Shown: positions 1-58,453 of the stretch, one piece after another
Position numbering within the stretch: the first letter of the stretch is position 1
Layout of the letters: each line of letters starts with the position of its first letter
Assembly: GCF_964194155.1 (NCBI RefSeq)
Contig: NC_135901.1
Span: 30,876,001-30,940,000, forward strand
From: Cetorhinus maximus
Taxonomy: Eukaryota
Length of the DNA: 64,000 nt
Direction of reading: 5' to 3'
Position numbers and translations under genes: made by a program
The notes under the pieces: generated by a model
Databases searched by the model: none
What the model saw: the letters and a program-made list of their open reading frames with translations, nothing else
What the model was told of the DNA's origin: nothing

Positions 1-648
1 GCTTCCAGGCCATCACCACTGGCTGTTGAAATAAAGTTCTTCCCCACACCACCTTGTATCTCTAATCATGTAATTGAGCACTGTGTCTTACGCGCATTTT
101 TGGTGCAGTAATGTTGGGTCTATCTTAGGTGCAGCAGAGTGAGAATGGAGCGAGAGTGTGTGGGATGGAGATTACCTGCTTTTGGGGAATGAGAGAGGAA
201 AGAATGTTCCACAGAAATTAGAACTGTCTGTTCTGAATTTCGATCCTGTACTGACAATAATGACTTTTGTAAACTTCTTTAGCAGAATATTAGAAGGGGA
301 GGACTTGCAGACAGCAATCTCAAACCAAACATCACGTCAAGATCTGACAGACTCACTCGACTCATCGGGACCTGAATATGATCAGCCTTTGAATCTAGAA
401 GGAGAAATGTTTGTCTGTTCTGTCTGCTTGAAAAGGTTTAAAGCATCAGCGTGACTGCAAAAGCATGAGACACACACACATGATTGAGAGTGTTCCAGTG
501 CATTGACTGTGGAAAAGCTTTAACCAGTTTCAGGGCTTGAGAAAAACATCACACCATTCACAGCGGCGAGAGACCGTACACGTGTTCTGTGTGAGTACGA
601 GGCTTCAACTGATCGTAGAACCTGGAGAGACAGAAGGACACGCGCACC

Positions 649-1410
649 ATGGAGAAACCGTGGAAATGTGGGGACTGTGGGAAGGGATTCAGATCCCCAT
701 CTGTGTTGGAAACTCATTGGCGCAGTCACACCGGGGAGAGGCCACTCACCTGCTCTGAGTGTGGGAAGGGATTCACTCAGTCATCTCACCTGCAGACACA
801 CCAGTGAGTTCACACTGGGGAGACACCGTTCACCTGCCCTGAGTGTGGGAAGGGATTTAGTCAGTTATCCAGCCTGCAATCACACCAGCGAGTTCACACT
901 GGGGAGAGACCATTCACATGTTCTGAATGTGGGAAGAGATTCACTAATTCATCCCACTTGCAGAGACACCAGCGAGTTCACACTGGGGAGAGGCTGTTCA
1001 CCTGCTCGGAGTGTGGGAAGGGATTCATTGATTCATCCCCCCTGCTGGCACACCAGCGGGTTCACACTGGGGAGAGGCCATTCATCTGTTACGTGTGTGC
1101 GAAGGGATTCCCTCGGTCATCCACCCTGCAGACACACCAGCGAGTTCACACTGGAGAGAGGCCATTCACCTGTTCTGAGTGTGGGAAGGGATTCACTCGG
1201 TCATCCCATCTGCTGGGACACCAACGAGTTCACACCGGGGAGAAGCCATTCACCTGCTCTGAGTGTGGGAAGCGATTCAGTGATACATCCACCCGGCTGA
1301 GACACCAGCGAGTTCACACAAGGGAGAGGCCGTTCAGAGGCTCTGAGTGTGGGAAGAGATTCACTTGTTCATCCAAGCTGCTGACACACCATGACAGTCA
1401 CACTGATTAG
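649..1410 (+). pseudogene. C2H2 ZNF pseudogene, about 9 fingers
   Basis: ACC-ATG-G start at 649 ([10 protein letters not shown]). In-frame TGA at 805-807 (CGA>TGA in HQRVH). The finger frame continues to 1410. Leader runs from a splice acceptor at 284-285. Confidence 0.85.
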
Positions 1411-1437: not shown

Positions 1438-2580
1438 TGTCGATTATGTCAATTGAGGTTAAGTATATACAGGTGGACATCATGGATTGGATAGTTACTT
1501 GAGCACATATAAAGAGACCCTTACTGATATCGAGTGGAGTCGAGTCAGGAGATATATACTCGTAATGTTTCACTCAGTGAATAAATCTATACCAAGTAAA
1601 GATTGGCTCCGGTTTCTTCCTTCACCATCAGGCTGTGAGGATTATAACATGGTAACAGAGAATGCTTGTCGAATGGTGAAGGTTGGAAACTAAAGGAAAA
1701 TAAAACTTCACACAGAAACTTACAACCTGAGTAGTTTTTGTGCGAAATGGCTGAAAGCAAGTGGAAATTGTCAGGGTCTGATTACCCGCTGATGTTCTCG
1801 GAGTCTGAGCCACACGACCAGTGGAAGAATGAAGTGGATATGTGGACACGGGTTACGTCCCTACCAAGGAGGAAACAAGGTCTGGTCTTGGCATCGTCAC
1901 CTCCCAACAAAAGTAAAATCAGAAGCAAAGTATTTAGTGAGCTAGATGCCCGTCAGTTGGATACTGATGAAGATTTGGATCTTCTATTCGGGTTCATTGA
2001 TGAGATTTGCAAGAAAGATGATCTACTGGATGCCTATGAAGCATAGTTGGACTTTGACAGGTTTCAAATGAGGGTGAAAGCATCTTTAGCAGATCTGCAT
2101 ATCACAACAGAAGACAGGATTGGAACAGCACTAATAGGTGAATGAACCCCAGGGGTGACCAGGGAACAGTTAACAGGTGTTTCAGGTCTGACGCAAAATA
2201 TCATTATGTGATGAATTGCCCAAAGTGGAAAATCAGGGTCTTCAAAGTGACACATGATACAGAGAATTCTGAGGCTGAAGATGATGATGATGATCACTCT
2301 GAAGGAATTGTACTAGTCACAAGGAGCTTTGGTCCAGTGATGAGTGTGTTAGTCACAGACACATTCAACTGTGCTGTGTTAGACAGTGGCTGCACCTCGA
2401 CAGCATGTGGATTAGATTGGTGAAAATGTTACCCAGATTCACCTCGTACTGAGGATCGACGCAAGGTTAAGGAGTATGAAAGTTCTACTTGTCCTGGTTT
2501 GGTTATGTCAACGCATTGAAGTCACTAAAAAGAGTGGGGATTCCCTGCAAAATAACTGGAGTCAGCCTCTTTATCAGTGT
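1438..2580 (+). mobile_element. Ty1/copia-type LTR retrotransposon, 5' part (LTR 1438-1649, PBS 1650-1665, deleted gag, protease)
   Basis: TGT...AACA LTR with TATAAA and AATAAA. TGGTAACAGAGAATG resembles the tRNA-iMet PBS (TGGTAGCAGAGGATG). Degenerate knuckle CFRSDAKYHYVMNC and aspartic protease motif AVLDSGC. Confidence 0.8.
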
Positions 2581-2584
2581 TAAC

Positions 2585-2948
2585 TGTTAGACTTCACCCC
2601 GATGACACATTTGTGTAATTAATTATATTACCAAATTGTACTGTATGTAAGCTTAACGATGAACAGTCTTCAATTGCCTGTCTCTTTAACTTCCAGATAC
2701 TGTAATGTAGCTTTAAGGAAAAAAAAACTGGTGTTAAGGTCAGGAAGGGGTCAGAGCACCAGGTGTTCCAGGACACCCTGTTTAGATACAAGTTATAGTG
2801 CACAGTTAGAAGGGACTCCAAGCTGATTGGCTCAATTTGTTGTGGGGAAACAAGGAACACTTTTCCCATTGGTCAAGAGTCACAAATATTTGTTTAAGAA
2901 GTTGTTAGTTTTGTTGAACAGCTGCACCAACATGGGTTAAATGTTACA
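2585..2948. mobile_element. Possible solo LTR
   Basis: Bounded by TGTTAG...GTTACA and truncates the copia protease. No internal domains. Confidence 0.3.
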
Positions 2949-2964
2949 AAATTACCTTCAAAAA

Positions 2965-3340
2965 GGTCCATTTGGTAACTCGAGTCCATGCCGACTCTGT
3001 AGAGCAATCCAGTCAGTCCCATTCCCCCTCTATATCCCCATATCCCTGCAAGTTTATGGCCTTCAAGTGCCCATCCAATTTTCTTTTGAAATCGTTCATC
3101 GTCTCTGATTGCACCACCTCAAAGGCAGCGAGTTCCAGGTCATTCTCACTCGCTGTGTAAAAAAAACTTCTTCCTCACATTCTCCCCACATCCCTCACTT
3201 AAAACCTTCAACCTGTGTCACCTCGTCCTTGGCGGGAACAGCTTTTCTTTGCCCAGTTGATGTAAACCTGTCATAATCTTGTCCACCTCTATCAAATCTC
3301 CCCTCAACCTCCTTTGCTGCAAGGAGAACAGTCCCAGCCA
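2965..3340 (-). mobile_element. CR1-type LINE 3' fragment
   Basis: Minus strand reads GLFSLQQRRLRGDLIEV, followed by a typical CR1 3' UTR. Confidence 0.8.
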
Positions 3341-3739
3341 GAAGAAAGAAACAAGATATGTTCATGCCTGGAATAAAATGGGAATGTTTACAATTCCACT
3401 GGGCAGTGAAGGAATTGGAGTAACTCACCTTGGGTGTAGTTGAATGGAATAGATCAATCTGGTATCCATGTAGATTCTAGTGAAATTCAGGGAAGTGTAG
3501 ACAAGATGAATAAGTCGATAGCTTTCTCTTGGAAATGTTTATATCATTTGCCTCTGACCCCTTTTTTAAAAGAAAACCACAGTTGAAATCCTGGCCACTA
3601 CCTGAAATATCGGGACCGCACAGAGTGAGATCAGCAAAGCTCTTGAGGCAGACCCACCCCAACCCCCACCCCACCCCACACACACACACACCTCCGCCCC
3701 AACCCCCGCGTCCCACTGCCCCCATGAACTTTGGATAAG

Positions 3740-5213
3740 ATAGCATGAAAGTCAAAAAATGTCTGTCATGCTATTGGGATACCAGTGTACGTGCACATGT
3801 GATTTGTTCGATGTTCAGCAGCTAACAGAAGGAAATTCATGGTGAAATACATGGAGGAGTCCCAAACATACACAGTGACTTGACAAACAGTATGACATGA
3901 AATGGTTAATGTGGCCAGAGGAATGAGACAACATTTTGATGTGATCAGGGCATTGACACACACTCCAGAGAGAAACTGACTTTAAAACAGTCAGGATAGA
4001 ATTAAAGACACCAGTCATGGTTGAAAAGTGAATAAAACTAAACTGAAAGGGATAAAAAATTATGGATTGGGACAATGAAGAGCTTGGGAGAAATAATACT
4101 GAGTGACAACTCTCCACAAGTTGGTCAGGAGTAAGGAGAGAGCTGGAGAATCTTTTACATCCAGGCTTGATCTGTTGCTTGAAGCCAATGTCCTGATGTA
4201 CGAGTAACCTAGAACTCACAGCGCTCCTTCAGGAGAAGAAAAGATTGAGTAGATGTTACCCCAGGCGGGGCCAGCACAGAACTGGAAAATCATTGAGTGA
4301 GGGGTCGGAGAGAGAGTTCTCCTCCCCTCAAGGTGTGGGCTGTAAGAATCCTGGGGGACCCCCTACTTTGGGTTTTCTTGCTAATTAGTGAACATTTAAT
4401 TAATAACTCTGACAGGCTGTGCAATTATTTTAAATTTGATTATTACACTTCTCCTGTTTTTATTCCTGTTGTGATTAGGCTCTGGGTGAGGATGGTTGAC
4501 AGGTGACAGGATGGGAAATTGTGGTTTGGGTCTTCATTGACCAAATGTTTTATTGGTCCGAAAGGTGTAAAAGGGGCCAAACTTCAGCAGAAATCTGGCA
4601 GAGCTGAGAACAGACGAATTGCTATGTGGGAACAGGGAGATGAACAGCTCCCAGAGGACAGAGAAAACAAGAGTGCCTTGAATCCTAGACGACATCTGGG
4701 TATCGAGGCCACCATGTTTTCATTGCTTGGCATGGGAATGCTGACTCCCTGTACCGGGGACGGAGCGTGGGAAGCCAATTGTTTGAGAGTTTGACGTGGC
4801 TTGGGCAGGTACAGATGGTTCAATGACAGGTTTTGTAATTGGTCCGTTCAAATGTTAGCTCAGCAATGATTGGGTTAAATCAGTCTCCATAGACTTTGTG
4901 ATGTAAAAAAGTATCAGAAGGGATTCCCCGAGCACAGAGATTTGTAGAGGTTTTACATATTGCATGACTAGTGCCATGGCATCTGGGGCAGACCAGGGAG
5001 CATTTACGTGGAGATGGTGCTTCTACCCAGAGTGTAATGGTAATGCTGCTGCACTTTGATACTACTGCTCAGACATGAGCATGTGTCAAGTCTTATTTAT
5101 ACTGAATAAAATCTAACCATTGCCACCAATAAGGGTTATCATTGTGAATCATTTCAGAGTTTGGGAAAAGGGAATAAAGGGTTAATTGACTCCCTGAACC
5201 CCATCTTCTAACA
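3740..5213 (+). mobile_element. Degenerate LTR-element 3' region with probable 3' LTR (about 4943-5213)
   Basis: Weak integrase-like remnants (GIP, MVEK, FIGP). TGTA...TAACA block with AATAAA. The paralogous site at about 13295 lacks this block. Confidence 0.35.
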
Positions 5214-5519
5214 TCGCTGTGTCAAAAATAAAATCTCATCTCGCCCTCTGGCTCCTTTGCCAATTACCTTAGAAGGTCTCACTTTCTGTTAAAGAGCCTG
5301 CCAACCCCTCTCACCCACTTTCCCTAAAGTGCAGATATCTAATCATGAAAAGTCCAGCAAAATAAAATACATTTACTGATAAGGTTTATTCATGAAACAG
5401 GACATGGTTAAAAAAAAAAATTACTTGAGGATCAAAGACAACCAGAGTAAAAGGATGTGCACAATGTTCTCGACCCAAATGGTTTCTCTTTAGTTCATCT
5501 GTCCCCTGTTTGCTGCCCT

Positions 5520-7040: not shown

Positions 7041-8241
7041 GGTGCGGGTGTCCTTGTGTCTTTCAAGGTTCGACGATCAGATGCATCTTCCTCCACACAC
7101 AGGACATAAGTGTGCTCCCTCCGCTGTGAATGGTCCAATGTTTTACCAGACTTTGTAACTGGTGAAAGCTCTTTCCGCAGTCAGTGCACTGGAACACTCT
7201 CACTCAGGTGTGTGCGTCTTCATGCTATCTTGGTCAGGCAGATGTTTAAAGTCTCCACAAGCAGGTAGGACTGAGAAACATCTCTCCTTCTAGATTCAAA
7301 GGCTGATAATATTCAGGTTCCATGAATCAAATGACTCTGAGACCTTGAAGTTACGTTTGGTTTTGAGTTTTCTGTCTGCAAATCCTCCTCTTCTGATAAC
7401 CGGTAAAAGGAGATTAGATAAATCATCACTGTTGCAACAGGATAGAAATGCAGAACTGACAATTTTAGTTTCTGTAGAACACTGTGTGCTCTCCATTCTC
7501 ACTATGCCATATTCACCCAGTAGTCCTGCACTAAAAATGTGTGTAATATAAAGTAGTCTATTACATGATTAGAGGTACAATGGGGTGTGAGGGAGAACTT
7601 TATTTTGGCAGTGAGTGGTGATGACCTGGAACTCGTTGCCTACGAGGGTGGTGGAAGTGGAGGCGATCAATGATTTCAAAATGAAATTGGATCAGCACTT
7701 GAAGGAAATAAACTTACAGGGGAATGGGGATATAGAGGGGGAATGAGACTGACTGGATTGTTCCACAGAGAGTCGGCATGGACTCAAATTATCGAATGGA
7801 CTCCTTCTGTGCCGTGATGACTCTGACTGGAAATATATAACGCAGCTACAGTGCTATATTACAAGACTAGAAATCAGAATACATTAAGTTTAAATGACCA
7901 TAAATAATATATCTACGATGCACCATATAACACTAGACATATCTCTGTCCTAAATTAATTTACTGTTCCCTTAAATGTCAGCCATCTCCTGGGGGAACCT
8001 CCCCTTTCATTGTGAACATTAGGAAAGAGACCATCCTTTTAGCCAGACAAATAAATGTGTCAAGCTGAGGGAGCAAAGGATGTCAATGTCTTTAAGAGAG
8101 AGAGAGAGAGAGACCTGGGCCAACCTTTCCAGAGTCTGCACCCTCCCTGGATTCACTTCCTTTCCCTTCAGTTCCTGCAAGTCAACAATTTCCCCCCAGA
8201 ATGAGAAAAGAAATGGAAAGGGGGAGAAGAGAAAGTGTTTT

Positions 8242-15154: not shown

Positions 15155-15876
15155 GGTGCTCGTGCCCTTGTGTCTCTCCAGGTCCGACAATCAGTTGAAG
15201 CCTTATCCACACACAGAACATGTATAAGTCTCTCCTCACTGTGAATGGTGATGTTTTTTCAGGCTGTGTAACTGGTCAAAGCTCTTTCCACAGTCAGTGC
15301 ACTGGACTCTCACTTGGGTGTGTGTGTCTCGGTGTTTTTCCAGTCACACTGAGGCTTAAAACCTTTTGAAGCAGGCAGAACAGACAAACATTTCCCCAGC
15401 TTGGTTCAAAGAACCAATGATATTCAGGTCCCATTTAATCAAATGAGTTTGGCAGATCTTGATGTGACGTTTGGTTTGAGATTTCTGTCTGCAAATCTTT
15501 CTCTTCTAATATCCTGTAAAGGGAGTTTACAAAAATCATCACTGTCAGTACAGGATAGATTACTAGTCCAGTGATATTACCAGAATGCCAGCATCACTCC
15601 CTGTATTTAGTTTAGATCTACCTGTAGTGGTAGAAAAAACTATTTACTATCCAGGATAAAACAAATGTCCTTCATCAGCTTTTGCAGATCATTTCAGTGG
15701 AAATGTACACTCCCAGGCTCAAAGAGCATCAGCCCACTGGAAGCAAAGTCGTGAGATTGGCCAGTCCAGCAGAAAGAAACCCTCCAACCTCCCACTTCAC
15801 CAAGTGTCAGAATGAACATGGTTCAGTCCTGGATGTGATTAACAGTGGCAATAACAGCAGAATCCAACCCCTGGAA

Positions 15877-17142: not shown

Positions 17143-17580
17143 GGTGCTCGTGCCCTTGTGTCTCTCCATGTTCGACGGTCAGTTGAAGCCTTGTCCACAC
17201 ACAGAACATGTATAAGTCTCTCCTCACTGTGAATGGTGATGTTTTTTCAGGCTGTTTAACTGGTTAAAGCTCTTTCCACAGTCAGTGCACTGGAAACACT
17301 CTCACTTGGGTGTGTGTGTCTCTCGGTGTTTTTCCAGTCACACTGAGGCTTAAAACCTTTTGAAGCAGACAGAACAGACAAACATTTCCCCAGCTTGGTT
17401 CAATAGAACCAATGATATTCAGGTCCCATTTAATCAAATGAGTTTGGCAGATCTTGATGTGACGTTTGGTTTGAGATTTCTGTCTGCAAATCTTCCCCTT
17501 CTAATATCCTGTAAAGGGAGTTTACAAAAATCATCACTGTCAGTACAGGATAGAAATTCAGAGCAGGCAATTCTAATTTC

Positions 17581-20749: not shown

Positions 20750-21213
20750 TTCCTCATAGATGTTGCCCAGAGGAGGAAGTTTCAGTCTGAAGCTCATTGT
20801 CCAACTTCCGCATTGTGACGTCCACAATGGAACCCTGCCTGAATCAGCCAATAGGAATCACTCTGCTCCGCTGTGATGACCACGGGTTCCAGTCTGCAGG
20901 CAAGGCGCGCGGACACGGGAGCCCCGCCCATCCATTGTTCCCCCTCCACCTCCTCGAGCCAAGGTTTCCAGACAACCGGCTGACGGCTCCGGACAGAGCG
21001 AGAAGCCGCTCGGAGACCTCGGGAGAGGGGAAGCTGCGCATGTGCGGGGGAGAGCCCGCCCCCTTCCCATCGTGCTGAAGGATTGACCAATGGGAAGAGT
21101 TCGAAGACCGGAAGGACTCTGGTCCTCCAGCCAATCAGAACGCGGGCTTTGTGTAAATGAAGATTGAGCTTCACACAGACTAAAATTTCCTCCTGTGTCC
21201 AACATCTGTGAGT
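20750..21213. promoter_or_regulatory. Bidirectional promoter module, type A (inverted relative to the 38.5 and 56.8 kb copies)
   Basis: CpG-rich core with CCAAT x3, TGACGTC, ACTTCCG (ETS-like) and TGCGCATGTGC. Plus donor GTGAGT at 21208. Minus donor mutated (ATGAGG, about 20752). Confidence 0.75.
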
Positions 21214-23508: not shown

Positions 23509-24314
23509 ACAGTAAATTAATATTGGGCAGAGATATGTCTAGTGTTGTTATATGATACATATTTTATTATTCATGGTCATCTAAACTTCATTCATAATTA
23601 TTTCTAATCTTGTAATATAGTAGTGTAGATACATAATGTGCCTCCATTCAAAGAGTCTTTGTGGCACAGAAGGAGTCCATTCAGCAACTTGAGCCAATGC
23701 TGACTCTGTGTAGAGCAATACAACCAGTAATCAGTGTCAAACAGAAAGCGATGAGTATGATTCTGTCAGTCAGGATGAATTAGTAACTTCAGGAGAATTG
23801 GGAGGGTGTATATAAGGTGAAGCAGTGTGAGAATGGAGGGAGAGCGTGGGTGGAGAGATTCACAACTTTTCGGCAATGACAGAAGGCAGAATGTTCCATA
23901 GAAACTAGAATTGTCGGTTCTAAAATGTTATCCTGTACTGACTTTGCAATTTCCTTTTACAGGATATCAGAAGGGGAGGATTTGCAGACAGAAATCTCAA
24001 ACCAAACATCACATCAAGATCTGACAGAGTCACACGGTTTAATGGGACCTGAATATCTTCGGCCTTTGAATCTAGAAGAAGCAATGTTTGTCTGTTCTGT
24101 CTGCTTCAGAAGATTTTAAACATCAGTGTGACTGGACAAGCACCGAGACCCACACACCCGAGTGACTGTTCCTGTGCACTGACTGTCAAGGAGCATTAAT
24201 CAGTTAAACAGACTTAATAGACATCACAATATAGAGAGACCGTAAAAGTGTTTTGATTGTGGACGAGGATTCAACTGATCGTGGAACCTGGAGAGACACA
24301 AGCACACCTGCACC

Positions 24315-25295
24315 ATGGGGAAACCGTGGAAATGTGGGGACTGTGGGAAGGGGTTCACATCCCCCTCGAAGCTGGAAATTCATCGGCGCAGTCACACTGG
24401 GGAGAGGCCGTTCACCTGCTCTGTGTGTGGGAAGGGATTCAGTCAGTTATCCAATCTTCTGACACACCAGCCAGTTCACACCAGGGAGAGGCCATTCTCC
24501 TGCTCTGAGTGTGGGAAGGGATTCATTCGGTCATCCCACCTGCAGACACACCGGCGGGTTCACACTGGGGAGAGGCCGTTCACCTGCTCAGAGTGTGGGA
24601 AGGGCTTCACTCAGCCATTCAACCTACTGACTCATCAGCGAGTTCACACAAGAGAGACGCCATTTGTCTGCTCTGAGTGTGGGAAGGGATTCAGTCAGTT
24701 ATCCAGCCTGCACACACACCAGCGAATTCACACCGGGGAGAGACCGTTCACCTGCTCTGAGTGTGGGAAAGGATTCAGTGATTCATCTGCCCTGCGGAAG
24801 CACGAGCGAGTACACACTGGGGAGAGGCCATTCAACTGCTCTGAATGTGGGAAGGCATTCACTCAGTCATCTGACCTGCAGACACACAGGCGGGTTCACA
24901 CCCGAGAGACACCATTCTCCTGCTCTCAGTGTGGAAAGCAATTCACTCGGTTATGTAGCCTGCAGACACACCGGTGGGTTCACACCGGGGAGAGACTGTT
25001 TACCTGCTCTGAGTGTGGGAAGCGCTTCACTCAGTCATCGAGCCTGCTGAGACACCAGCGAGGTCACACTGGGGAGAGGCCGTTCACCTGCTCTGAGTGT
25101 GGAAAGGGATTCACACAGTCATCCGACCTGCTGACACACCAGCGAGGCCACACTGGGGAGAGGCCATTCATCTGTTCTCTATGTGGGAAGGGATTCATTC
25201 ATTTATCCAGCCTGCTGAGACACCAGCGAGTTCACAAGCAATTACAGGGTTTGGATTCTGCTGTTATTGCTGCTGTTAATCACATCCAGGACTGA
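24315..25295 (+). CDS. C2H2 zinc-finger protein, 11 fingers, 326 aa
   Basis: Uninterrupted ORF with ACC-ATG-G start. Donor at 21208, acceptor at 23961-23962, AATAAA at about 25509. Confidence 0.9.
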
Positions 25296-26664: not shown

Positions 26665-27060
26665 GAGAGAGAGTGTTCCACAGAAACTAAAATTGTCTGT
26701 TCTGCATTTCTGTCCTGTACTGACAGTGATGACTTTTGTAAACGTTTTTTGCAGAATATTAGAAGAGGAAGATTTGTAGACAGAAAACCAAACATCACAC
26801 CAAGATTGGGACATGAGTGTCATCGGCCTTTGAATCTAGAGGGAGACATGTTTGTTCTGCCTGCGTCAAATGATTATGAACAACAGTGTGACTGGAAAAG
26901 CACCGAGAGATTGTTCCAGTGCACTGACTCTGGTAAAAGCTTCAACCAGTTACACAGCGTGAGAAAACATTGCACCATTCACAACAGGGATCTGTGTTCT
27001 ATATGAGGGCAGGGCTTCTACTGATCACTGAACCTGGAGAGTCACAAGGACACCAACATC

Positions 27061-27903
27061 ATGGAGAAACCATGGAAATGTGGGGACTGTGGGAACGGAT
27101 TCAAATCCCCATCTGCGCTGGAGATTCATCGACGCAGTCACACTGGAGAGAGGCCATTTATCTGCTCAACATGTGGGAAAGGATTCAGTAATTCATCCAC
27201 GCTGCATGCACACCAGCGAGTTCACACTGGGGAGAGGCCGTTCACCTGCTCTGAATGTGGGAAGAGATTCACTCGGCAATCCCACCTGCAGACACACCAG
27301 CAAGTTCACACTGGGGCGAGGCCGTTCACCTGCTCTGTGTGTGGGAAGGGGTTCATTCATTCAGGCAACCTGCAGACACACCAGCGAGTTCATACTGGAG
27401 AGAAGCCATTTACCTGCTCCACGTGTGGGAAGGGATTCAGCGATTCATCCACCTTGCACAGACACGAGCCAGTTCACACTGGAGAGAGGCCGTACATCTG
27501 CTCTGAGTGTGGGAAAGGATTCGCTCGGCAATCCCACCTGCAGACACACCAGCGAGTTCACACCGGGGAGAGGCCCTTCACCTGCTCTCAGTGTGGGAAG
27601 AGATTCAGTCATTCAGGCAACCTGCTGAAACATGAGCGAGTTCACACTGGGGAGAAGCCGTTCACCTGCAGTCAGTGTGGGAAGGGATTCACTTGGTTAT
27701 GCAGTCTGCAGACACACCAGCGAGTTCACAGTGGGGAGAGGCCATTCAGCTGCTCTTTGTGTGGGAAGGAATTCAGTGAATTATCCACCCTGGGGAAGCA
27801 CCAGCGAGTTCACACCGGGGAGAGACCGTTCACCTGCACTGAGTGTGGGAAGGGATTCACTTGGTTATCTAGCTTGCTCAGACACCAGCGAATTCACAAA
27901 TGA
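27061..27903 (+). CDS. C2H2 zinc-finger protein, 10 fingers, 280 aa
   Basis: Uninterrupted ORF MEKPWKC...HQRIHK*. Acceptor at 26753-26754. The promoter is not visible because of the gap. Confidence 0.88.
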
Positions 27904-30559: not shown

Positions 30560-30853
30560 GGGGATCACATCAATGAGACCCCTAAATGCTCTGACTGTGG
30601 GAGTGGCTTTAAAAACACTGCAGAACTGATGTTCCACCAGCGCATTCGTACTGAGGGGAGACTGTTCATCTGCTCTCACTGTGCAAAGAGATTGAGAACA
30701 TCATCCCACCGGCTGACACACCAGCGAGTTCACATCAGGGAGAGGCCGTTCACCTGCTCCGAGTGTGGAAACGGATTCAGGTATTCATCCAACCTGCTGA
30801 GGCACAAGTGCAGTGACACCAATTGGAGACGTTTTAGATGCTCTGACTGTGGG
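30560..30853 (+). pseudogene. C2H2 ZNF fragment (about 3 degenerate fingers)
   Basis: KCSDCGSGFKNTAELMFH...CSHCAKR...CSECGNGF. No leader or start. Confidence 0.8.
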
Positions 30854-33659: not shown

Positions 33660-34264
33660 GGTGTAGGTGTCCTTGTGTCTCTCCTCAATCAAAGATCAGT
33701 TGAAGCCTCGTCCTCACACAGAACACGTGAATGGTCTCTTTCCGCTGTGAACGGTGTGATGTTTTTTTCAGTCTGTGTAACTGGTTAAAGCTCTTTCCAC
33801 AGTCAGTGCACTGGAAACACTCTCACTTGGGTGTGTGGGTCTTGGTGCTTTTCCAGTCACCCTGATGCTTAAAACCTTTTGAAGCAGCCACAACAGACAA
33901 ACGTTTCTTGTTCTAAATTCAAAGGCTGATCATATTCAGGGCCCAATGAATCAAGTGACTCTGTCAGATCTTGACATCTGGTTTGAGATTTCTGTCTGTA
34001 AATCCTCCCCTTATAATATCCTGCAAAAGGAGTTTACAAAAGTCACCACTGTCAGTACAAGAAAGAAATTCAGAACAGGCAATTCTAGTTTCTGTGGCAC
34101 ATTATTTCCACTGTCCTTCCCCAAAAGCTGTAAATCTCCATCCCACACACCCTCCCTCCATTCTCACTCTGCTGTACCTAATATACACCCTCCCAATTCT
34201 CCTGAAGATAACCATTCATATTGCTCGTCTGATCCACGCTCACCGCTTCCTGTCCAGGATACAG

Positions 34265-38337: not shown

Positions 38338-38777
38338 ACTCACAGATGTTGGACACAGGAGGAAGTTTTAGTCTGTGTGAAGCTCAGTCTTCATTCACAC
38401 AAAGCCCGCGCTCTGAATGGCTGGAGGACAAGAGTCCTTCCGGTCCTTCAACTCTTCCCATTGGTCGGTCCCTCATCCTGACGAGGGGGGGCGGACTCAC
38501 TCCCCGCACATGCGCAGCTTCCCCTCTCCCGAGTTCTCCGAGCGGCTTCTCGCTCTGGCCGGAGCCTTCAGCCGGTTGCCTGGAAACCTTGACTCGAGGA
38601 GGTGGAGGGGGAACCATGGGTGGGGGCGGGGCTCCCGTGTCCGCGCGCCTGGCCTGCGGACTGGAACCCGAGGACGACATCGCGGAACAGGCAGGGTTCC
38701 CTTGACGACGTCACAATGCGGAAGATGGACAATGACCTTCAGACTAAAACTTCCTCCTCTGGGCAACATCTGTAAGG
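38338..38777. promoter_or_regulatory. Bidirectional promoter module, type A
   Basis: Minus donor at 38338-38343, GGGGCGGGGC, CACATGCGCA, GACGTCA, CGGAAG. Plus donor GTAAGG at 38772. Confidence 0.75.
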
Positions 38778-39092
38778 AAATCAATGTTTCCCCCTTTCGC
38801 TTAATTCATCAAGACAAGAATATTGTTTGCCTTTGAATCTAGATGGAGAAATGTTTGTCCGTTCTGTCAGCTTCAACAGGTTTTAAACATCAGTGTGACT
38901 GGAAAAGCACCGAGACTCACACACCCGAGTGAGAGTGTTTCCAGTGCACTGAGTGTGGAAACAGCTGTCACCAGTTACACAGCCTGAAGAAACATCGCAC
39001 CATTCACAGCGCAGGAGAGACTGTACACGTGTTGTGTATGTGGATCCCTCAGTTAAATACTGAACCTGGAAAGACACGAGGACAACTGCACC

Positions 39093-46624: not shown

Positions 46625-47797
46625 GATGCGGGTGTCCTTGTAACTCTCCAGGTTCTACCATCAGTTGAAGCCTCATTCATGCACAAACCACATATACGGT
46701 CCTTCCCCGCTATGAATGGTGCAATATTTATTCAGGATGTGTAAATGGTTAAAAACTCTTTCCACAGCACTGGAACACTCTCACTCGGGTGTGTCTCTGT
46801 CTCCGTGCTTTTCTGGTCACACCGATGTTTAAAATCTCTTCAAGCAGACAGAACAGATAAATATTTCTCCTTCTAGATGCAAAGGCCAATGATATTCATG
46901 TCCCGATGAATTGAGTGACTCTGTCAGATCGTGATGTGTCGTTTGGTTTGATGTTTCTGCTTTCAAATCCTCTCCTTCTGACATCCTGTAACAGGAGTTT
47001 ACAAAAGTCATCACTGTCAGTACAGGATAGAAATTCAGAACAGACAATTCTAGTTTCTATGGAACATTCTTTCCCCTCTCGTTCCCCAAAAGCTGTAAAT
47101 TTCCATCCCACACCCATTTCCTTCATTCTCACTCTGCTGTACCTAATATATACCCTCCCAATTCTACTGAAGGTGTCAATTCATGCCGATCGACAGATCC
47201 ATGCATCGCACTTTATATATATTTGGTAGATGAAAAATGTGTGCTATATACAGTACTGTATTACTTGATTAGAGATATATCAAGGATGTGAGGAAGAACT
47301 TTATTTAGGCAGTGAGTGGTCATCAACTGGAACTCGCTACCTATGAGGATGGTGGAAGTGGAGCTGATCAATGATTTTAAAACACAAGTGTCTGGTCACA
47401 TAAAGGAAATAAACTTGAAGGAAATAAACAAATAAACTTGCAGGGAAATGGGGATGTAGAGGGGAAATGAGACTAACTGGATTGCTCTACAGAGAGTCGG
47501 ACTTGAGTTTCTGAGTGGACTCTTTCTGTGTTGTAATGACTGGAAAGTTAAAACATAGCTACAGAACCATATTACAATACAATACCAGAAATAATAATAA
47601 ATGTATTTTATTACAGAATTCATAAATAATATATCTAATATGTACCACATAACAACACTAGACATATCTCTGTTGTTACAATCCCCGTGGAGACAAATAA
47701 CCTCAAAATGAGAAAATTTTACTGTAACAAACTAAAATCAACAATTTCCCCCCAGAATGAGAAAAGAAATGGAAAGGGGGAGAAAAGAAAGTGTTTT

Positions 47798-48662: not shown

Positions 48663-48889
48663 TGAAACTGAACCCGGGAGTCAGCACCTTCAGGGAAGGA
48701 GAATTGGGGAAATGCAGGAGGTGGATAGTACGATCAATTGGGGTTACTACCAATAGGGAGAATCGAGTATGTGGGGGACAGAGATTTCAAGTTTGAGAGG
48801 GAAAAGGATTTTCTTTGTCAACTAGAATATCAGTTTCAAATTTCTATTGTGTATTTACTACAATGGCTTTTGTAAACACCTTTTAAAGT

Positions 48890-49580
48890 GCAATGGAGAG
48901 GGAGGATTTGCAGATGGGAAAATCAAACCAAGCATCACGTAATGATTTGACAGAGCCATTTGATTCAGCAGGGCCTGATGGTCATCAGCGATTGAATATG
49001 GGAGGAGAAATGTTTGTCTGTTCGAAAATACTTCAAACATCATTGTGACTGAAAGAGCATCGAGACAAACACAACCATGAGAGAGTGTTCCACTGCACTG
49101 ACTGTGGAAAGAGCTTTAACCAGTTACACAGCCTGAAAAGACCATTTCCAGCAGGAAGAGACCATGTATATGAGGCTTCAGAAGATTGTTGAAATTGAAG
49201 ACACACAAGGGCACCTGCACCAGGGAGAAACTGTGGAAGTGTGGGGACCGTGCAACAGAATTCTATTTCCCCTCTGCACCCCACATATCTGTGCCGGAAA
49301 CTCATCAATGCCAGGGACATGCCATTCACCTGATCTGAGTGGGAATGGATTCACTCAGCTTCACTCGCACCTGCTTTTAGACCAGTGAGATCACACTGTG
49401 AAGAGGCTGTTCACCTGTTCGGTTTGTGGGAAACAATCAGTGATCCATCCAACCTGCTCTTTGCATGTCGCAGTGCAGATTTCCACTGAAATGATTCACA
49501 AAAGCTGATGAAGTACATTTATTTTATCCTGGATAGTAAATAGTGTTTTTCCTACCACTACAGGTAGATCCAAATTAAAT
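48890..49580 (+). pseudogene. Heavily decayed ZNF unit
   Basis: Recognisable leader, no ATG (acc-AGG-gag), about 3 broken fingers, distal 3' UTR. Confidence 0.8.
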
Positions 49581-52227
49581 ACATTTGTCTTGTTCCACTG
49601 TGTCTACAGCAGAGGGCCAGGCCAGTCGGCTCAATTGGTCTATGTCAGTATTTATGCTCCACATGAGCCTCCACCCACCCCTCTTCATCTCCCCCCCATC
49701 AGCATATCCTTTCTCCCTCATGTATGTATCGAGATTCCCCCTAAATGTATTCATGCTATTCACCTCAACCACTCGATGTGGTAGTGAGTTCCACATTCTC
49801 ACCACTCGCTGGGTAAAAAGGTTTCTCATCAAATCCCTGTTGGATTATTGAACCCCGTCATTATCTTAAAGACTTCCATCAGGTTACCCTTCAGTCGTCT
49901 CTTTTCTAGAGAAAAGCAGCCCCAGCCTTTCCTGAAGGTTAAATGCTCTCAGTTTCTGGTATTATTCTTGTGAATCTTTGTTGCCCCTTCTCCAGTGCCT
50001 CTATTTCCTTTTTCTAAATGGAGATCAGAAAATGTTGACAGTGCTCCCAGTGTAGTCTAACCATGGTTCAAAACAATTTGAATATAACCTCCCTGTTTTT
50101 CAATTCTATCCCTCCAGAATGGAACCCTATATCTGGGACCCACATTTTAGGAAAGATGTGAAGTTCTTAGAGAGGGTGCAGGGCAGATTCACGAGAATGG
50201 CACCAGGGATGAAGGACGTCATTTAGTTGGAGAGACTGGTGCAGCTGAAATTATTTTATTTTGACCATCGTGACATTAGGAGAGAGGAGGCCATTCATCG
50301 CATTGAGTCCATGCCAGCTCTCCATGGAGCCGCCTGTTAAGTTAGCACCCGCCTTTCTTCCTTCCTGCCTGTTCACCAAAAACCACCACCTCCCCCCGCC
50401 CCCGCCCCATTCCCAAAGCTGCCCAAACCCACCCGGCCCAATACCCCGGACGTATCTTGCTCCAGGATTCCGGACGTATCTTGCTCCAGGATTCATTGCA
50501 CCTTCTTGGAACCGATTGCAGTCCTGGAAGTGCCCTAATGCCCTCTTGGCACGGCTTGGAATGCCGGAACTAGTGCCCAATTCGATTGGCGAGTGGCTCC
50601 TGAGGGCGTGACTCCCTCCCCAGCAAAGGGCAGAAGTCCTGGAAGTCTCACCCTGCCCCTGCTGAACCCGCCCGCAGTGTGTTCTGGCTGCGGGGTGATC
50701 TGGTGTGCAGCGAGTCGGCTTCCTTAAAGTCATAGCATCATTACGGCACAGAAGAAGTCCATTCGGCAACCGGAATATGCATCGATTTTCTGTGGAGCAT
50801 TCAGTCAGTCCCATTCCCCCTCTGTTCCCCATAACCCTGCAAGTTGATTTCCTTCAAGTGCCTATCCAATTTCATTTTGAAATCACTTATTTCCCTTTCC
50901 ACCACCCTTGTTGGCAGCGAGTTACAGATCATGACCACTCTATGCCTAAATAAAGTTCTTCCTCACATCCCCTTCCCACTGTATCTTTGAGAAATACAGT
51001 ACTGTACATCACTCATTTTCAGTCCAGTTATACGTACATGTATATATATATATGTGTGTGGAGATATACAGCCTGCATAAAGAATTTCAGATCTCTCTGT
51101 CCAGGACATGAAGCTGGATTTTAAATCTTTGACAAGAAGGATGAGCAAATTGTCTGTGTGTAGCTGAAAGACAATTTGCATTTTTTCTCTGATTCTTATC
51201 ACCTGATGCCATTAATCCTTCTCAAACACTCTGATGAGAAACATCAGGTATTGTTAAGGGGAGACGATAATGTCCTGATTGAGGAAACTGCAGGTCCACT
51301 GACTTTCCAAAATCAGTTGCCTTATCTTGCTCCATGTCCAGTTGCATTTGTGCCTTTTTCATGGAAGGTTTAGTCAACAGGAAGGGTATCTCACTAGAGT
51401 TTACACCAGTCCTGATAAAGTGGCTGACTCCAGCTAGTTTGCATGAAAACACAACTTTTTTTAGTGACTTGAATGTGTTCACATCACCAAAATTAAACAA
51501 GTAGAACTTTCATACTCCTTAACCCTGTGTCGATCCTCACTATGAGGTGAATCTGGGTAACATTTTCACCAATCTGATCCACATACTGTCGAGGTGTAGC
51601 CACTGTCTAACACAGCACAGTTGAATGAGTCTGTCACTAACACACTCATCACTGGACCAAAGCTCCTTGTGACTAGTACAATTCCTTCAAAGTGATCATC
51701 ATCATCATCTTCAGCCTCAGAATTCTCTGTATCATGTGTCACTTCGAAGACCCTGATTTTCCACTTTGGGCAGTTCATCACATAATGATATTTTGAGTCA
51801 GACCTGAAACACCTGTTAACTGTTCCCTGGACATTCCTGGAGTTCATTCACCTATTAGTGCTGTTCCAATCCTGTTTTTTGTTGTGTTATCCAGATCTGC
51901 TAAAGATGCTTTCGTCCTCATTCGAAACCTGTCAAAGTCCAACTATGCTTCATAGGCATCCAATAGATCATCTTTCTCGTAAATCTCATCAATGAACCCG
52001 AATAGAAGATCCAAACCTTCATCAGTATCCAACTGACAGGCATCCAGCTCAATAAATACTTTTCTTCTGATTTTATTTTTGTTGGGAAGTGACGATGCCA
52101 AGACCAGACCTTGTTTCCTCCTTGGTAGGGACGTAACCCGTGTCCACATCTCCACTTCATTCTTCCACTGGTCGTGTGGCTCAGACTCCGAGAACATCGG
52201 CGGGTAATCAGACCCTGACAATTTCCA

Positions 52228-53035: not shown

Positions 53036-54907
53036 TCAGAGCAGGTGAACAGCCTCTCCCCGGTGTGACCCTGTTGATGTGTCAGCAGGTAGGATGAAAG
53101 AGCGAATACCTTTCCACACATGGAGCAAACGAAGGGCCTCTCTCCAGTGTGAATTTGCCGGTGTGTCTGCAGATGGGACGACCGAGTGAATCCTTCCCAC
53201 ATCGAGAGTGGGTGAATGGTCTTTTCCAGTGTGAACCTGTTGGTGTGTCAGCAGGTGGGATAACTGAGTGAATCCCTTCTCACACACAGTGCAGGTGAAT
53301 GGCCTCTCTCCGGTGTGAACTACCTGGTGAGCCACTAGGTGGGATGACAGAGTGAATCCCTTCCCACACTCAGAGCAGGTGAACAGCCTCTCCCTGGTGT
53401 GAACTACCCGGTGTGTCACTAGATGCGCAGACTGAGTGAATCCCTTCCCACACTCAGAGCAGCTGAATGGCCTCTCCCCAGTGTGAACTACCTGGTGTGC
53501 TACTAGATGGGATGACTGAGTGAATCCCTTCCCACACTCAGAGCAGGTGAAGGACTTCTCCCTGGTGTGAACTACCTGATGTGCCACAAGGTGTGAGGAC
53601 TGAATGAATCCCTTCCCACACACAGAGCAGGTGAAGTGCTTCTCCCTGGTGTGAGATACCTGGTGTGCCACTAGGTGGGACGACTGAGTGAATCCCCTCC
53701 CACACTCAGAGCAGGTGAACGGCCTCTCGTCGGTGTGAACTACCTGGTGTGCCACTAGGTGTGAGGACTGAGTGAATCCCTTTCCACACACAGAGCAGGT
53801 GAACAGCCTCTCCTTGGTGTGAACTACCTGATGTTCCATTAGGTGTGAGGAATGAGTGAATCCCTTTCCACACACAGAGCAGGTGAACGACCTCTCCTTG
53901 GTGTGAACTACCTGGTGAGCTACTAGGTGCGAGGGATGAGTGAATCCCTTTCCACACACAGTGCAGGTGAATGGCCTCTCTCTGGTGTGAACTATCTGGT
54001 GTGGCACTTGTTGCGATGAATGAGTGAATCCCTTCCCACACACAGAGCAGGTGAATGGCCTCTCCTCAGTGTGAACTACCTGGTGTGCCACTGGGTGGGA
54101 TGACTGAGTGAATCCCTTCCCACACTCAGAGCAGGTGAATGGCATCCCCTTGGTGTGAACTACCTGGTGTGCCACCAGGTGCACAGACTGAGTGAATCCC
54201 CTCCCACACTCAGAGCAGGTAAACGGCCTCTCCTCTGTGTGAACTACCTGGTGTGCCACTAGGTGGGATGACTGAGTGAATCCTTTCCCACACACAGAGC
54301 AGGTGAACGGCCTCTCGCTGGTGTGAACTACCTGGTGTGCCACTAGGTGGGATGACTGAGTGAATCCTTTCCCACACACAGAGCAGGTAAACGGCCTCTC
54401 CCTGGTGTGAACTACCTGGTGTGCCACTAGGTGCACAGACTGAGTGAATCCCCTACCACACTCAGAGCAGGTGAACGGCCTCTCCTCTGTGTGAACGACC
54501 TGGTGTGCTACTAGGTGGGATGACTGAGTGAATCCTTTCCCACACACAGAGCAGGTGAACGACCTCTCCCTGGTGTGAGCGACTTGGTGTGACACTAGGT
54601 GGGATGACTGAGTGAATCCCTTCCCACACTCAGAGCAGGTGAACGGCTTCTCTCCGGTGTGAACTACCTGGTGTGCCACTAGGTGGGATGACTGAGTAAA
54701 TCCTTTCCCACACACAGAGCAGGTGAGCGGCCTCTCCCTGGTGTGAGCGATCTGGTGTGCCACTAGGTGTGAGGAATGAGTGAATCCCTTCCCACACACA
54801 GGGCAGATGAATGGCCTCTCCCCAGTGTGAATGCATCGATGAGTTTCCAGCGCAGATGGGGTTTGAAATCCCTTCCCACAGTCCCTACATTTCCAGAGTT
54901 TCTCCAT
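53036..54907 (-). CDS. C2H2 zinc-finger protein, 20 in-frame fingers, frameshift at about 53225
   Basis: ACC-ATG-G at 54907 (MEKLWKC). Open through 20 fingers. About 3 more fingers lie out of frame before the copia LTR. Donor at 56657, acceptor at 55662-55664. Confidence 0.8.
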   Translation of the reverse strand: MEKLWKCRDCGKGFQTPSALETHRCIHTGERPFICPVCGKGFTHSSHLVAHQIAHTRERPLTCSVCGKGFTQSSHLVAHQVVHTGEKPFTCSECGKGFTQSSHLVSHQVAHTRERSFTCSVCGKGFTQSSHLVAHQVVHTEERPFTCSECGRGFTQSVHLVAHQVVHTRERPFTCSVCGKGFTQSSHLVAHQVVHTSERPFTCSVCGKGFTQSSHLVAHQVVHTEERPFTCSECGRGFTQSVHLVAHQVVHTKGMPFTCSECGKGFTQSSHPVAHQVVHTEERPFTCSVCGKGFTHSSQQVPHQIVHTRERPFTCTVCGKGFTHPSHLVAHQVVHTKERSFTCSVCGKGFTHSSHLMEHQVVHTKERLFTCSVCGKGFTQSSHLVAHQVVHTDERPFTCSECGRGFTQSSHLVAHQVSHTREKHFTCSVCGKGFIQSSHLVAHQVVHTREKSFTCSECGKGFTQSSHLVAHQVVHTGERPFSCSECGKGFTQSAHLVTHRVVHTRERLFTCSECGKGFTLSSHLVAHQVVHTGERPFTCTVCEKGFTQLSHLLTHQQVHTGKDHSPTLDVGRIHSVVPSADTPANSHWREALRLLHVWKGIRSFILPADTSTGSHRGEAVHLL

Positions 54908-55185
54908 GGTGCACGTGCCCTTCTGTATCTCCACGTCCGATGATCAGATGGTGCCTCATCCACACGCACAATACATGTGTGGTGTCTCCCCTTTGTGAAT
55001 GGTGTGATGCTTTCTCAGTCTGTGTAACTGGTTAAAGCTCTTTCTACAGTCAGTGCACTGGAAACACTCTCACTCGGGTGTGTGTGTCTCGGTGCTTTTC
55101 CAGTCACGCTGATGTTTGAAACATTTTGAAGCAGACAGAACAGACAGATATTTCTCCTTCTAGATTCAAAGGCCAATGATATTCA

Positions 55186-55341
<156 letters not shown>

Positions 55342-56656
55342 TCAGTTGAAGCCTCATACACGCACCTAACATGTGAACTGTCACTCCCCACTGTGAATGG
55401 TAATGCTTTCTCAGTCTGTGTAACTAGTTAAAGCTCTTTCCACAGTCAGTGCACTGGAATACTTTCAATCAGCTGTGTGTGTCTTGGTGCTTCTCCAGTC
55501 ACATTGATGTTTAGAATCTTTACCCACAGACAGAACAGACAAATGTTTCTCCACATTCAAAGATCAATTATGTTCAGGTCCTGATGAATTGAATGACTGT
55601 GAGATCTTGATGTGATTTTTGGTTTCAGATTTCTGTCTACAAATCCCCCCCCTCTAATATCCTGTAAAAGGAGTTTACAAAAGTCATCACTGTCAGTACA
55701 AGACAGAAATTCATAACAGACAATTCTAGTTGCTATGAAACATTCTTCCCTCTCCTGTTACCCAAAATCTATAAATCTCAGTCCCACACACTCTCCCTCC
55801 ATTCTCACTCTGCGGTGCCTAATATACACCCTCCTCATTCTCCTGAAGGTGCAAATTCATCTTAATCGACAGATCCGTGTTCAGCACTGTCAGTCCAGCA
55901 CACAGAGCTGCGAGTCATATACATGGTCATATTACTGGAATACAAACGTGTGTAATATAATGTAATATGTATTGCATGATTAGAGTTATGGGCGGATGGA
56001 AGAAAGAACTGTAATTAGGAGTGAGTGATCATGACCTGGAATTGAGTTCATCTGAGGATGGTGGAACTGGAGATGATCTCTGATTTCAGAATGAAATTTC
56101 ATGGACACTTGACGGAAATGTACTTGCAGGGGGATGGGGATATAGAGGGGGAATGGGATTGACTGAATTCGTCGATGGAGAGTCGAGATGGACTCAAGTT
56201 GCCGAATAGACTCCTCCTGTGCCGTAATGACTCTGTGACAGGAAATATACAACATAGCTACAGTACTATATCGCACGGTTAGAAAAAATAATAAATGTAC
56301 TTTATTACAGAACCATAAATATTATATCTGATGAGTACCATCTAACAACACTAGACACATCTCTGTCCTATATTAATTCACTGTCCCCTTAAATGTCAGC
56401 CATCTCCTGGGGAAACCAGCCCTTTAATTGTGAACATTAGGAAAGAGACCATCCTTTTAGCCAAACAAATAAATGTGTCAAGCTGAGGGAGCAAAGGATG
56501 TCAATGTCTTTAAGAGAGAGAGAGAGAGACCTGGGCCAACCTTACCAGAGTCTGCACCCTCCCTGGATTCACTTCCTTTCCCTTCAGTTCCTGCAAGTCA
56601 ACAATTTCCCCCAGAATGAGAAAAGAAATGGAAAGGGGGAGAAAAGAAAGTGTTTT

Positions 56657-57132
56657 ACTCACAGATGTTGGACACAGGAGGAAGTTTTAGTCTGTGTGAA
56701 GCTCAATCTTTATTCACACAAAGCCCGCGCTATGATTGGCTGGAGGACCAGAGTCCTTCCGGTCCTTCAACTCTTCCCATTGGTCAGCCCCTCAGCATGA
56801 CGGGAAGAGGCGGGTCTCCCCCGCACATGCGCAGCTTCCCCTCTCCCGTGTTCCCTGAGCGGCTTCTCGCTCTGGCCGGAGCCTTCAGCCGGTTTCCTGG
56901 AAACATTGGCTCGAGGAGGGGGAGGGGGAGGGGGAGGGGGAACAATGGATGGGGGGCGGGGCTCCCGTGTCCGCGCGCCTGGCCTGCAGGCTGGGACCCG
57001 AGAACGTCACCGCGGAGCAGAGTGATTCCTATTGGCTGATTCAGGCAGGGTTCCATTGTGGACGGTCACAATGCGGAAGTTGGACAATTAGTTTCAGACG
57101 AAGACTTCCTCCTGTGCCCAACATCTGTGAGT
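56657..57132. promoter_or_regulatory. Bidirectional promoter module, type A, flanked by inverted intron arms
   Basis: Donors GTGAGT at 56657-56662(-) and 57127-57132(+). ATTGG x3, GC box, CGGAAGT, CACATGCGCA. Confidence 0.8.
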
Positions 57133-58453
57133 AAAACACTTTCTTTTCTCCCCCTTTCCATTTCTTTTCTCATTCTGGGGTCAAATTGTTGACTTACAGG
57201 AACTGAAGGGAAAGGAAGTGAATCCAGGGAGGGTGCAGACTCTGGAAAGGTTGGCCCAGGTCTCTCTCTCTCTCTCTTAAAGACATTGACATCCTTTGCT
57301 CCCTCAGCTTGACACATTTATTTGTCTGGCTAAAAGGATGGTCTCTTTCCTAATGTTCACAATTGAAGGGGTGGTTTCCCCAGGAGATGGCTGACATTTA
57401 GAGGGACAGTAAATTAATATAGGACAGAGATATTTCTAGTTTTGTTATATGGTACATATTTAATATAAATTATTTATGATTCTGTAATAAAATGCATTTA
57501 TTATTATTTCCAGTCTTGTAATATAGTACTGTAGCTGCCTTATATCTTTCCAGTCACAGAGTCATTATGCCACAGAAGGAGACCATTCAGCAACTCAAGT
57601 CCATGCTGACTTAGTGTAGAGCAATCCAGTCAGTCCTATTTCCCCTCGATATCCCTATTCCCCTGTAAGTTTATTTCTTCATGTGTTCATCCAACTTCAT
57701 TTCAAAATCATTGATCATCTCTGCATCCCTCGAGGAAGCGAGTTCCAGGTCAAATAATCCTTCAAATGAATTTAATTCATCCAGTCCAATTTCATGTTGA
57801 AACTATCGATCATCTCTGCTTCCTCTACCCTCCTATATAGTGAGTTGCCAAACGTCTCTGTATCTGGGACAAGAAGCAGTGAGCTTGGATCTCTTGATGA
57901 ACATGAATCGGCACCTTCAGGAGAATTGGGAGGGTGTATATGAGGTACAGCAGAGTGAGAATGGAGGGAGAGTGTGTAGGACGGAGATTTACAGCTTTTT
58001 GGGAATGAGAGAGGAAAGAATGTCCCATAGAAACTAGAATTGTCTGTTCTGAATTTCTATCCTGTGCTGACCATAATGACTTTTGTAAACTCCTTTTACA
58101 GGATATTAGAAGAGAGGATTTGCAGACAGAAAACTCAAACCAAACATCACATCAAGATTGATCCAGCAACTCATTTCTCTGAAGTCTGAATATCACCTGC
58201 CTTTGAATCCAGGAGGAGAAATGTTTGTCTGCTCTGTCTGCTTCAATAGTTTCAAACATCAGTGCGACTGGAAAAGCACCGAGACACACACACCCTAGTG
58301 AGAGTGTTCCAGTACACTGACTGTGGAAAGAGCTTTAACCAGTTGCACCACCTGTTTGTACTACTCACAGTGGGGAGAGACCGTATGCATGTTCAGTGTG
58401 GACGAAACTTCAACTGACCCTCGAAACTGGAGAGTCACAAGCACACCCGCACC

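Follow-up and report, generated by a model that had tools for sequence, protein, structure and literature searches.

A decayed three-finger leader in a tandemly duplicated shark C2H2 zinc-finger gene family, probably retained as a neutral relic

Organization of the cluster

The sequence analyzed here, referred to as the window, is a 64 kb stretch of DNA from Cetorhinus maximus in which C2H2 zinc-finger (ZNF) units are clustered in tandem, some on either strand. Leader copies were found by blastn with window positions 201-700 as the query and were then aligned and scored per site. A total of 13 leader-bearing units were recovered, and since the other 12 copies match at E 1e-62 or better, their likeness is not due to chance. 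A full open ORF was found in four of the 13 units (10, 11, 10 and 20 fingers), each with at least five C2H2 fingers joined by TGE(K/R)P-type linkers, and zf-C2H2 was matched by Pfam in the three open ORFs that were scanned. These clustered paralogs, open and broken together, display birth-and-death turnover.

In the first unit (+ strand), the exon that carries both leader and fingers begins behind a splice acceptor AG at 284-285, which falls in the same alignment column in the other copies. It continues with a spacer of 40 codons (287-406), in frame with the relic fingers and presumably 5'UTR; with an upstream ATG (uATG) and relic finger 1 up to a shared TGA at 452-454 (407-454), which here form a 15-codon uORF; with the remainder of relic finger 1 followed by a relic finger 2, both of them frameshifted (455-570); and with relic finger 3 (571-648), which contains a shared TGA at 610-612 and lacks its second His. 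The main ATG (ACC-ATG-G) at 649 opens an ORF of 52 aa (649-807) that ends at TGA 805-807, and the fingers run on to about 1400, so the unit is a pseudogene. The original prediction took 286-651 as its example, and the fossil-finger leader is indeed there, but the unit behind it is broken.

The other copies were delimited by alignment. On the minus strand, leaders were located at 7041-7400 (ORF 7040-6414, 208 aa, 6 fingers), 17143-17508 (ORF broken after 107 aa), 33660-34020 (ORF ending after 107 aa) and 46625-46985 (ORF broken after 51 aa), and the copy at 15155-15513, in which ATG has become GTG, belongs to a recent duplicate of the 17.1 kb unit (tree pair 100/100). A tandem double leader at 54908-55661, consisting of 55661-55306 (ATG changed to AAG) and a partial copy at 55250-54908, precedes the open ORF 54907-53036 (623 aa, 20 fingers). 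On the plus strand, open ORFs follow the leaders at 23963-24314 (ORF 24315-25295, 326 aa, 11 fingers), 26755-27060 (cut to 306 nt by deletions; ORF 27061-27903, 280 aa, 10 fingers) and 58102-58453 (ORF 58454-59296, 280 aa, 10 fingers). A partial leader at 38829-39092 has its acceptor and 5' spacer deleted and abuts a first-exon region, its ORF ending after 92 aa, and the copy at 48889-49221 (ATG changed to AGG) heads a degenerate unit.

Several minor features were also recorded. The 623-aa ORF (53036-54907, minus strand), with its doubled leader in front, is composed mostly of near-identical internal repeats. At 38771-38830 the first exon almost directly abuts the middle of a leader, the intron and acceptor being deleted. 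A leaderless three-finger fragment at 30587-30820 resembles the 3' part of the first unit. Long repeat copies with 92-94% identity and gag/pol-like frames occur at 1660-5508, 51412-52227 and 59801-64000, and we take this repeat to be probably an LTR retrotransposon; the frames at about 17.6-19.1 and 34.5-36.0 kb are presumably LINE-like.

Leader structure and shared stop codons

Each of the 13 leaders consists of a spacer and three decayed C2H2 fingers, and the expectation that the leaders are three fossil fingers with shared TGA stops was borne out in all of them. Helix position +3 of finger 1 is TGA in 12 copies (452, 7236, 15346, 17340, 24129, 26889, 33859, 38896, 46819, 49046, 55106 and 55501) and, as already noticed for the 58.26 kb copy, CGA in one (58265). 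Helix position -1 of finger 3 is TGA in 11 copies, TAA in one (39054) and AGA in one (49183), in agreement with the claim that both TGA codons recur in nearly all leaders. A third common stop site was found at helix -2 of finger 1, where TAA occurs in eight copies, CAA in three, and TGA and AAA in one each. On our reading of the alignment, the second His of finger 3 is missing in 12 of 13 leaders. The consensus of the 11 near-complete copies, from which the partial 39.1 and 54.9 kb copies were excluded, is 363 nt long and forms a single frame from the acceptor to the ATG of the MEKPW segment, interrupted by three stops only.

Frameshifts were found in all 13 leaders, and the view that indels mark a leader which no longer codes was thereby confirmed. 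The leader was also said to be kept in every full unit; 13 copies are present, but two of them (39.1 and 54.9 kb) lack the acceptor together with the 5' portion of the spacer, and in the 7.0 kb leader the acceptor CAG has changed to CCG. A main ATG is present in 10 of 13 leaders, and the strong ACC-ATG-G context proposed for the start Met applies to eight of these, the other two having ATC-ATG-G and the remaining three leaders GTG, AAG and AGG. A short uORF was correctly described as usual in so far as the MFV uATG occurs in nine of 13 leaders, but uORF length is not fixed and varies from 11 to 52 codons.

Origin and age of the stop codons

Judged from the aligned copies and from gene models of other sharks, both TGA stops are inherited from the founder of the family. 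True CpG sites in the leader decay both ways (e.g. CA 4, TG 4, CG 2), but the finger 1 +3 site shows TG 10, CG 1 and CA 0. At 58265, T accounts for 98%, 99%, 89% and 99% of contig depth in four public sequencing runs from three organisms (63-75 contigs each; depth is per contig). The rate of TG to CG change is 0.047 per site per copy, and because about 1.2 CGA codons are expected among 26 site-copies and one is seen, the CGA at 58265 is likely a back-mutation.

The stops are also found outside Cetorhinus. Models end at FQTSV, the +3 stop, in Pristiophorus (P0002 and P0003) and Heterodontus (P0136), and the Carcharodon model P0148 ends at GFN, the -1 stop. The Pristiophorus models have Gln at finger 1 helix -2, so the TAA at that site is likely younger; the leader tree is a star in which 8 of 10 inner branches are open, and it gives no placement of the TAA site. 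Pristiophorus is a squalomorph, and Heterodontus and Carcharodon are galeomorphs. Because squalomorph and galeomorph models share the +3 stop, it is likely older than about 181 million years, the date given for a split within galeomorphs (PMC11406177). Survival of the leader across sharks needs no selection, because the shark mutation rate of 7e-10 per base per generation given in PMC10587355 amounts to at most 7% per lineage over 200 million years with generations of at least 2 years.

Substitution rates in the leader

Over 11 units, leader pN/pS is 1.00 (345/2679 vs 129/1002), with 0.97 for the spacer and 1.08, 0.85 and 1.12 for the three fingers. In the same seven units, the leader has pN/pS 0.94 and the first coding finger 0.29 (Fisher p 0.0009), which indicates purifying selection on the coding fingers as represented by that finger, the only one scored. 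Divergence from the consensus is 0.098-0.156 in leader parts and 0.094-0.163 in the adjacent intron, an imperfect neutral yardstick given possible splice or promoter elements and possible conversion between paralogs. The leader carries 5.9-17.8 indels per kb (17.8 in finger 2); the corresponding figures for the intron and the first coding finger are 0-5.8 and 1.9. Leader divergence is 0.129 before open ORFs (n=4) and 0.124 in the other nine (p 0.83), a comparison of modest power, with nine of 13 units lacking a full open ORF, four open units, and the 15.1 and 17.1 kb units being non-independent.

The uATG is kept in 8 of 11 near-complete leaders, a level equalled or bettered by 49% of leader trinucleotides, and ATG-creating changes are not depleted (34 observed, 28 expected). 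ATG density, 9.8 per kb in the leader vs 25.5 per kb in the intron, reflects the founder sequence. No conserved RNA fold was detected in the leader (covariation term +3.12, with compensation in 3 of 60 pairs). Against neutrality, both TGA codons are kept in 10 of 11 leaders, a small surplus that only 12% of leader trinucleotides match, and one 30-nt window in finger 2 differs from the consensus by just 0.047; three off-frame TGA trinucleotides are kept as well as the in-frame TGA codons. A role of the relic leader in translational control was suggested originally, with divergence at the intron rate combined with absent uORF occupancy named as an outcome that would speak against it. On the sequence side of this outcome, the leader does diverge at the intron rate and behaves neutrally, with neither uATG nor uORF conserved, and the suggestion was not upheld.

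Upstream exons and splicing

The 55 and 58 kb units are arranged head-to-head around a common GC-rich stretch (56663-57126) with a donor at each end, at 56663 on the minus strand and 57126 on the plus strand. This stretch, which contains CCAAT boxes and an NRF1-like motif, is likely a bidirectional promoter. A likely small middle 5'UTR exon, the 3' end of which is not fixed, is located at 57200-57260 (+) behind an acceptor at 57198-57199, and five full copies of it are 93-97% identical. In Scyliorhinus, model P0132 joins the homologous right promoter arm to the spacer, and model P0130 joins a homologue of the middle exon to it. Further likely bidirectional promoters were observed at 38344-38771, about 20757-21207, 8248 and 47804, both arms ending in the same donor-bearing sequence; between copies, identity is 87-97% for the promoter arms and the middle exon.

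Contigs from the four public runs, which represent three related organisms (share of words 0.23-0.47), were mapped on 56600-58560; the division into RNA-like and DNA-like runs is a guess of the software, none of the listed runs being on record as RNA. For the 58.4 kb unit, the match of one contig from an RNA-like run opens at 58102, precisely at the acceptor, and a second RNA-like contig stops at 57127. Ahead of the exon, loose ends occur without the TTTTACAG tract in two RNA-like runs and with it in two DNA-like runs. These contig breaks in runs guessed to be RNA give a hint that the leader is a spliced 5'UTR. Counting pyrimidine tracts failed to tell the true acceptor apart from AGs closer to the ATG, and an Rfam search of 56600-59800 returned three matches (E 0.6-1), all far below gathering scores. 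Homology of the first exon to the spacer was rejected, as 40-308 of 500 shuffles reach its score.

Related gene models in other sharks

A search with the spacer produced 40 hits, of which four multi-stretch models (P0144, P0145, P0146 and P0157) were left out as likely repeats; with P0002 added, 37 models were retained. An earlier, smaller spacer search had given five hits and missed known ones, and a finger 2-3 profile search was dominated by long generic ZNF proteins, so its shark rows alone were used. The named spacer hits are all sharks, with no ray or chimaera among them (30 looked up, 7 without organism name; 50% representative library). By our own reading, 14 of the 37 models are of the window's kind, 10 belong to a sister subfamily and 13 end or splice elsewhere. 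Fingers 1-3 are intact in one frame in none of the 37, and a query with fingers 1-2 found no candidate, which is weak evidence.

The sister subfamily (P0128, P0131, P0134, P0139-P0142, P0147, P0149 and P0045) was found in Pristiophorus, Heterodontus, Stegostoma, Mustelus, Cetorhinus, Carcharodon and Scyliorhinus, and its entries are annotated just as 'zinc finger protein N-like' or uncharacterized. Its members (e.g. XP_078426599.1 and XP_041031843.1) have the same spacer, finger 3 position and next finger (EKPWKC-like) as the window family. In contrast to the latter, they lack fingers 1-2 and the shared stops: the spacer leads to a start like MEGKST and then to an intact finger 3 with both His residues and a TGEKP linker, and since the residues that follow MEGK resemble the tail of finger 2, a deletion of fingers 1-2 is probable for the sister branch. 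Position -1 of finger 3 is R or Q where it could be read, and several models carry the linker HKCSHTGEKPWKC or one close to it; the same linker also turns up as a loose end ahead of MEKPW in three of the four runs. Because sister models keep finger 3 intact and have R or Q at -1, CGA is the likely source of the -1 stop, and the proposal that the start Met replaced the G of a TGEKP linker is supported by their intact finger 3 and TGEKPW linker. Several sister models carry a spacer duplicated in shifted frames. Models P0135 and P0169 represent shark-like DNA in ENA metagenome records, in which W at +3 mimics a sense codon; since W stands at other TGA positions too, the gene caller most likely translated TGA as Trp here.

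No shared upstream domain was seen by eye among the 37 spacer-bearing models. Pfam matched nothing in the spacer or in P0132, P0130 and P0003, the models that join it to upstream exons, and the ESM Atlas gave no usable match for the spacer. The idea of a founder that lost its N-terminus and became effector-less therefore stands in one part: three N-terminal fingers stopped coding, but the loss of an effector finds no trace in a shared domain of the 37 models or in Pfam. For the predicted proteins, 'effector-less' is nevertheless a fair description.

Evolutionary interpretation

The leader is most likely a neutral fossil that is caught, within one exon, between the acceptor and a newly arisen ATG and is copied with each duplication, and it likely serves now as the plain 5'UTR of a tandemly duplicated shark C2H2 family. 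The ancestral exon, a reconstruction for which no intact protein was found, would have coded for the spacer, fingers 1-3 and finger 4 onward. In one founder, before the split of sawsharks and galeomorphs, two codons would have become TGA, likely by CpG deamination of Arg CGA, while finger 3 would have lost its last His and an ATG would have taken the place of Gly in the linker between fingers 3 and 4. Translation likely shifted to this linker ATG and thus to a finger-only protein; from the drop in pN/pS and the gene models, we infer that the MEKPW ATG is used as the start. Because it lies in a single exon, flanked by the only good acceptor and the ATG, the leader is hard to drop and every segmental duplication copies it, and slow shark mutation would keep it readable. 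Ribosomes would pass the uATGs of the leader by leaky scanning or re-initiation, and the uATGs may dampen translation by leaky scanning, as a side effect and not a selected function. The sister subfamily may have become finger-only by another route, with fingers 1-2 missing and a likely start at MEGKST just before the intact finger 3.

Co-option of the relic as a selected translational control, with the uORF of finger 1 controlling re-initiation at the MEKPW ATG, is quite improbable. The uATG frequency, a uORF of 11 codons in five of the nine leaders concerned, the joint retention of both stops, the RNA-like contigs that break at the acceptor and so place the leader likely in the mRNA, and the occurrence of the leader in several shark orders would all suit such a role. 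Yet uATG retention is average and the 623-aa open gene has ATA at this site; uORF length is variable and finger 1 has pN/pS 1.08; new ATGs are not depleted, and the leaders of open genes are no better kept than others. It is very improbable that the shared TGAs instead arose repeatedly by CpG decay of CGA, with an intact master copy surviving and the CGA at 58.26 kb as its remnant. The CA product is absent at both sites, the single CGA agrees with the number of back-mutations expected, T is dominant in all four runs, and no spacer hit has three fingers in frame; these observations outweigh the occurrence of CGA to TGA changes in coding fingers (HQRVH site, + strand: CGA 18, TGA 2 of 24), the one copy with CGA and the R or Q of the sister models.

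Scarcely credible, too, is a leader still translated through stop read-through or recoding, or an mRNA that splices a coding exon straight to MEKPW. Frameshifts in every copy and a pN/pS of 1.00 argue against continued coding, as do a TAG in the first-exon frame of the 58.4 kb unit and the most likely misread W of P0135 and P0169, even though the +3 stop stands in a TGA-C context and the ATG of the right promoter arm is in phase with the spacer in both listed copies, the two being joined in P0132. Direct splicing is disfavored by the loose ends listed before MEKPW, which are the linker of the sister subfamily in RNA-like and DNA-like runs alike. Taken as a neutral fossil, the leader is a useful marker and implies no new mechanism. 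It places the origin of one shark ZNF subfamily before the sawshark-galeomorph split, sets the sister subfamily apart, pins down the likely start codon, and accounts for automatic shark models that stop at FQTSV or attach random exons to the spacer.

Comparison with known zinc-finger families

KRAB zinc-finger genes (KZFPs) occur in clusters, have every finger encoded by a single final exon after a spacer, include many pseudogenes and have head-to-head promoters, and these features of layout are common to the window family. KZFPs are known from coelacanth, lungfish and tetrapods and are described as sarcopterygian (PMC10380595). Unlike in KZFPs, KRAB was not found by Pfam in the spacer or in P0132, P0130 and P0003, the frame is shut by stops and frameshifts, and the window spacer is without protein constraint. 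FiNZ genes of cyprinid fish (PMC10547256) are also a large ZNF family of fish that lacks KRAB and combines an upstream exon with a single exon for the fingers; their N-terminal coding exon is a conserved acidic one of 28 aa, whereas no shared upstream peptide was seen by eye in the 37 shark models. A conserved regulatory uORF differs from the present one, in which uATG retention does not exceed background and neither a peptide nor a length is conserved.

The lineage-specific tandem C2H2 expansions of metazoans (Wells et al. 2023, PMC10547256) are likewise clustered paralogs with five or more C2H2 fingers, but in the window the array exon opens with some 360 nt that once coded and no longer do, and its product is predicted to be fingers only. 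The same source lists ZNF ORF counts for cartilaginous fish (Scyliorhinus canicula 3586, Carcharodon 1851, Amblyraja 1223, Callorhinchus 475); none of the chondrichthyan terms looked for occurs in its main text, and the parts examined give no gene structure for a shark family. A literature search, outside which most subscription papers fell, turned up nothing on this leader or on either subfamily. The leader is real and well supported and marks an apparently undescribed variant within a familiar type of gene family; its mechanism is ordinary. Shark genomes hold over a thousand ZNF ORFs by the above counts, and an N-terminal effector was seen in neither subfamily, which makes their mode of action a testable question.

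Conserved segment behind the last finger

The conserved 3' segment is a better place than the leader to seek function. Over the 160 nt after the stop in eight units, pairwise difference is 0.079 vs 0.198 for the leader, and it is lower in 27 of 28 pairs. Because this segment (59294-59450, +, in the 58 kb unit), which served as an internal positive control for constraint, is far more alike than the leader, constraint or homogenization is detectable in this ZNF family and is not detected in the leader. Further copies lie in the regions of 25239, 40017, 14484, 15883, 6257, 45871, 32991 and 27897. From these comparisons, the segment is a candidate for a family-wide RNA/DNA element or a C-terminal motif. 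A wider reading, rather unlikely in our estimation, is that sharks possess a very large and ancient system of bare finger-array ZNF proteins, reached twice from one ancestor, by stops and a new linker ATG in the window family and by deletion of two fingers in the sister subfamily, with family-wide control residing not in an N-terminal effector but in shared RNA/DNA elements or in a short C-terminal tail (the 3' segment, possibly together with the relic uORF). If true, such a bare-array system with shared elements would stand next to KRAB and FiNZ as a third design.

The segment reads in frame as a tail of 17-18 residues, for which the ESM Atlas returned generic ZNF clusters only (0.79), and it shows 16 non-synonymous vs 5 synonymous changes. 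The tail stands behind the stop in eight of nine window copies, and it belongs to the coding sequence of the 24.3 kb gene and of the Heterodontus models P0025, P0032 and P0065.
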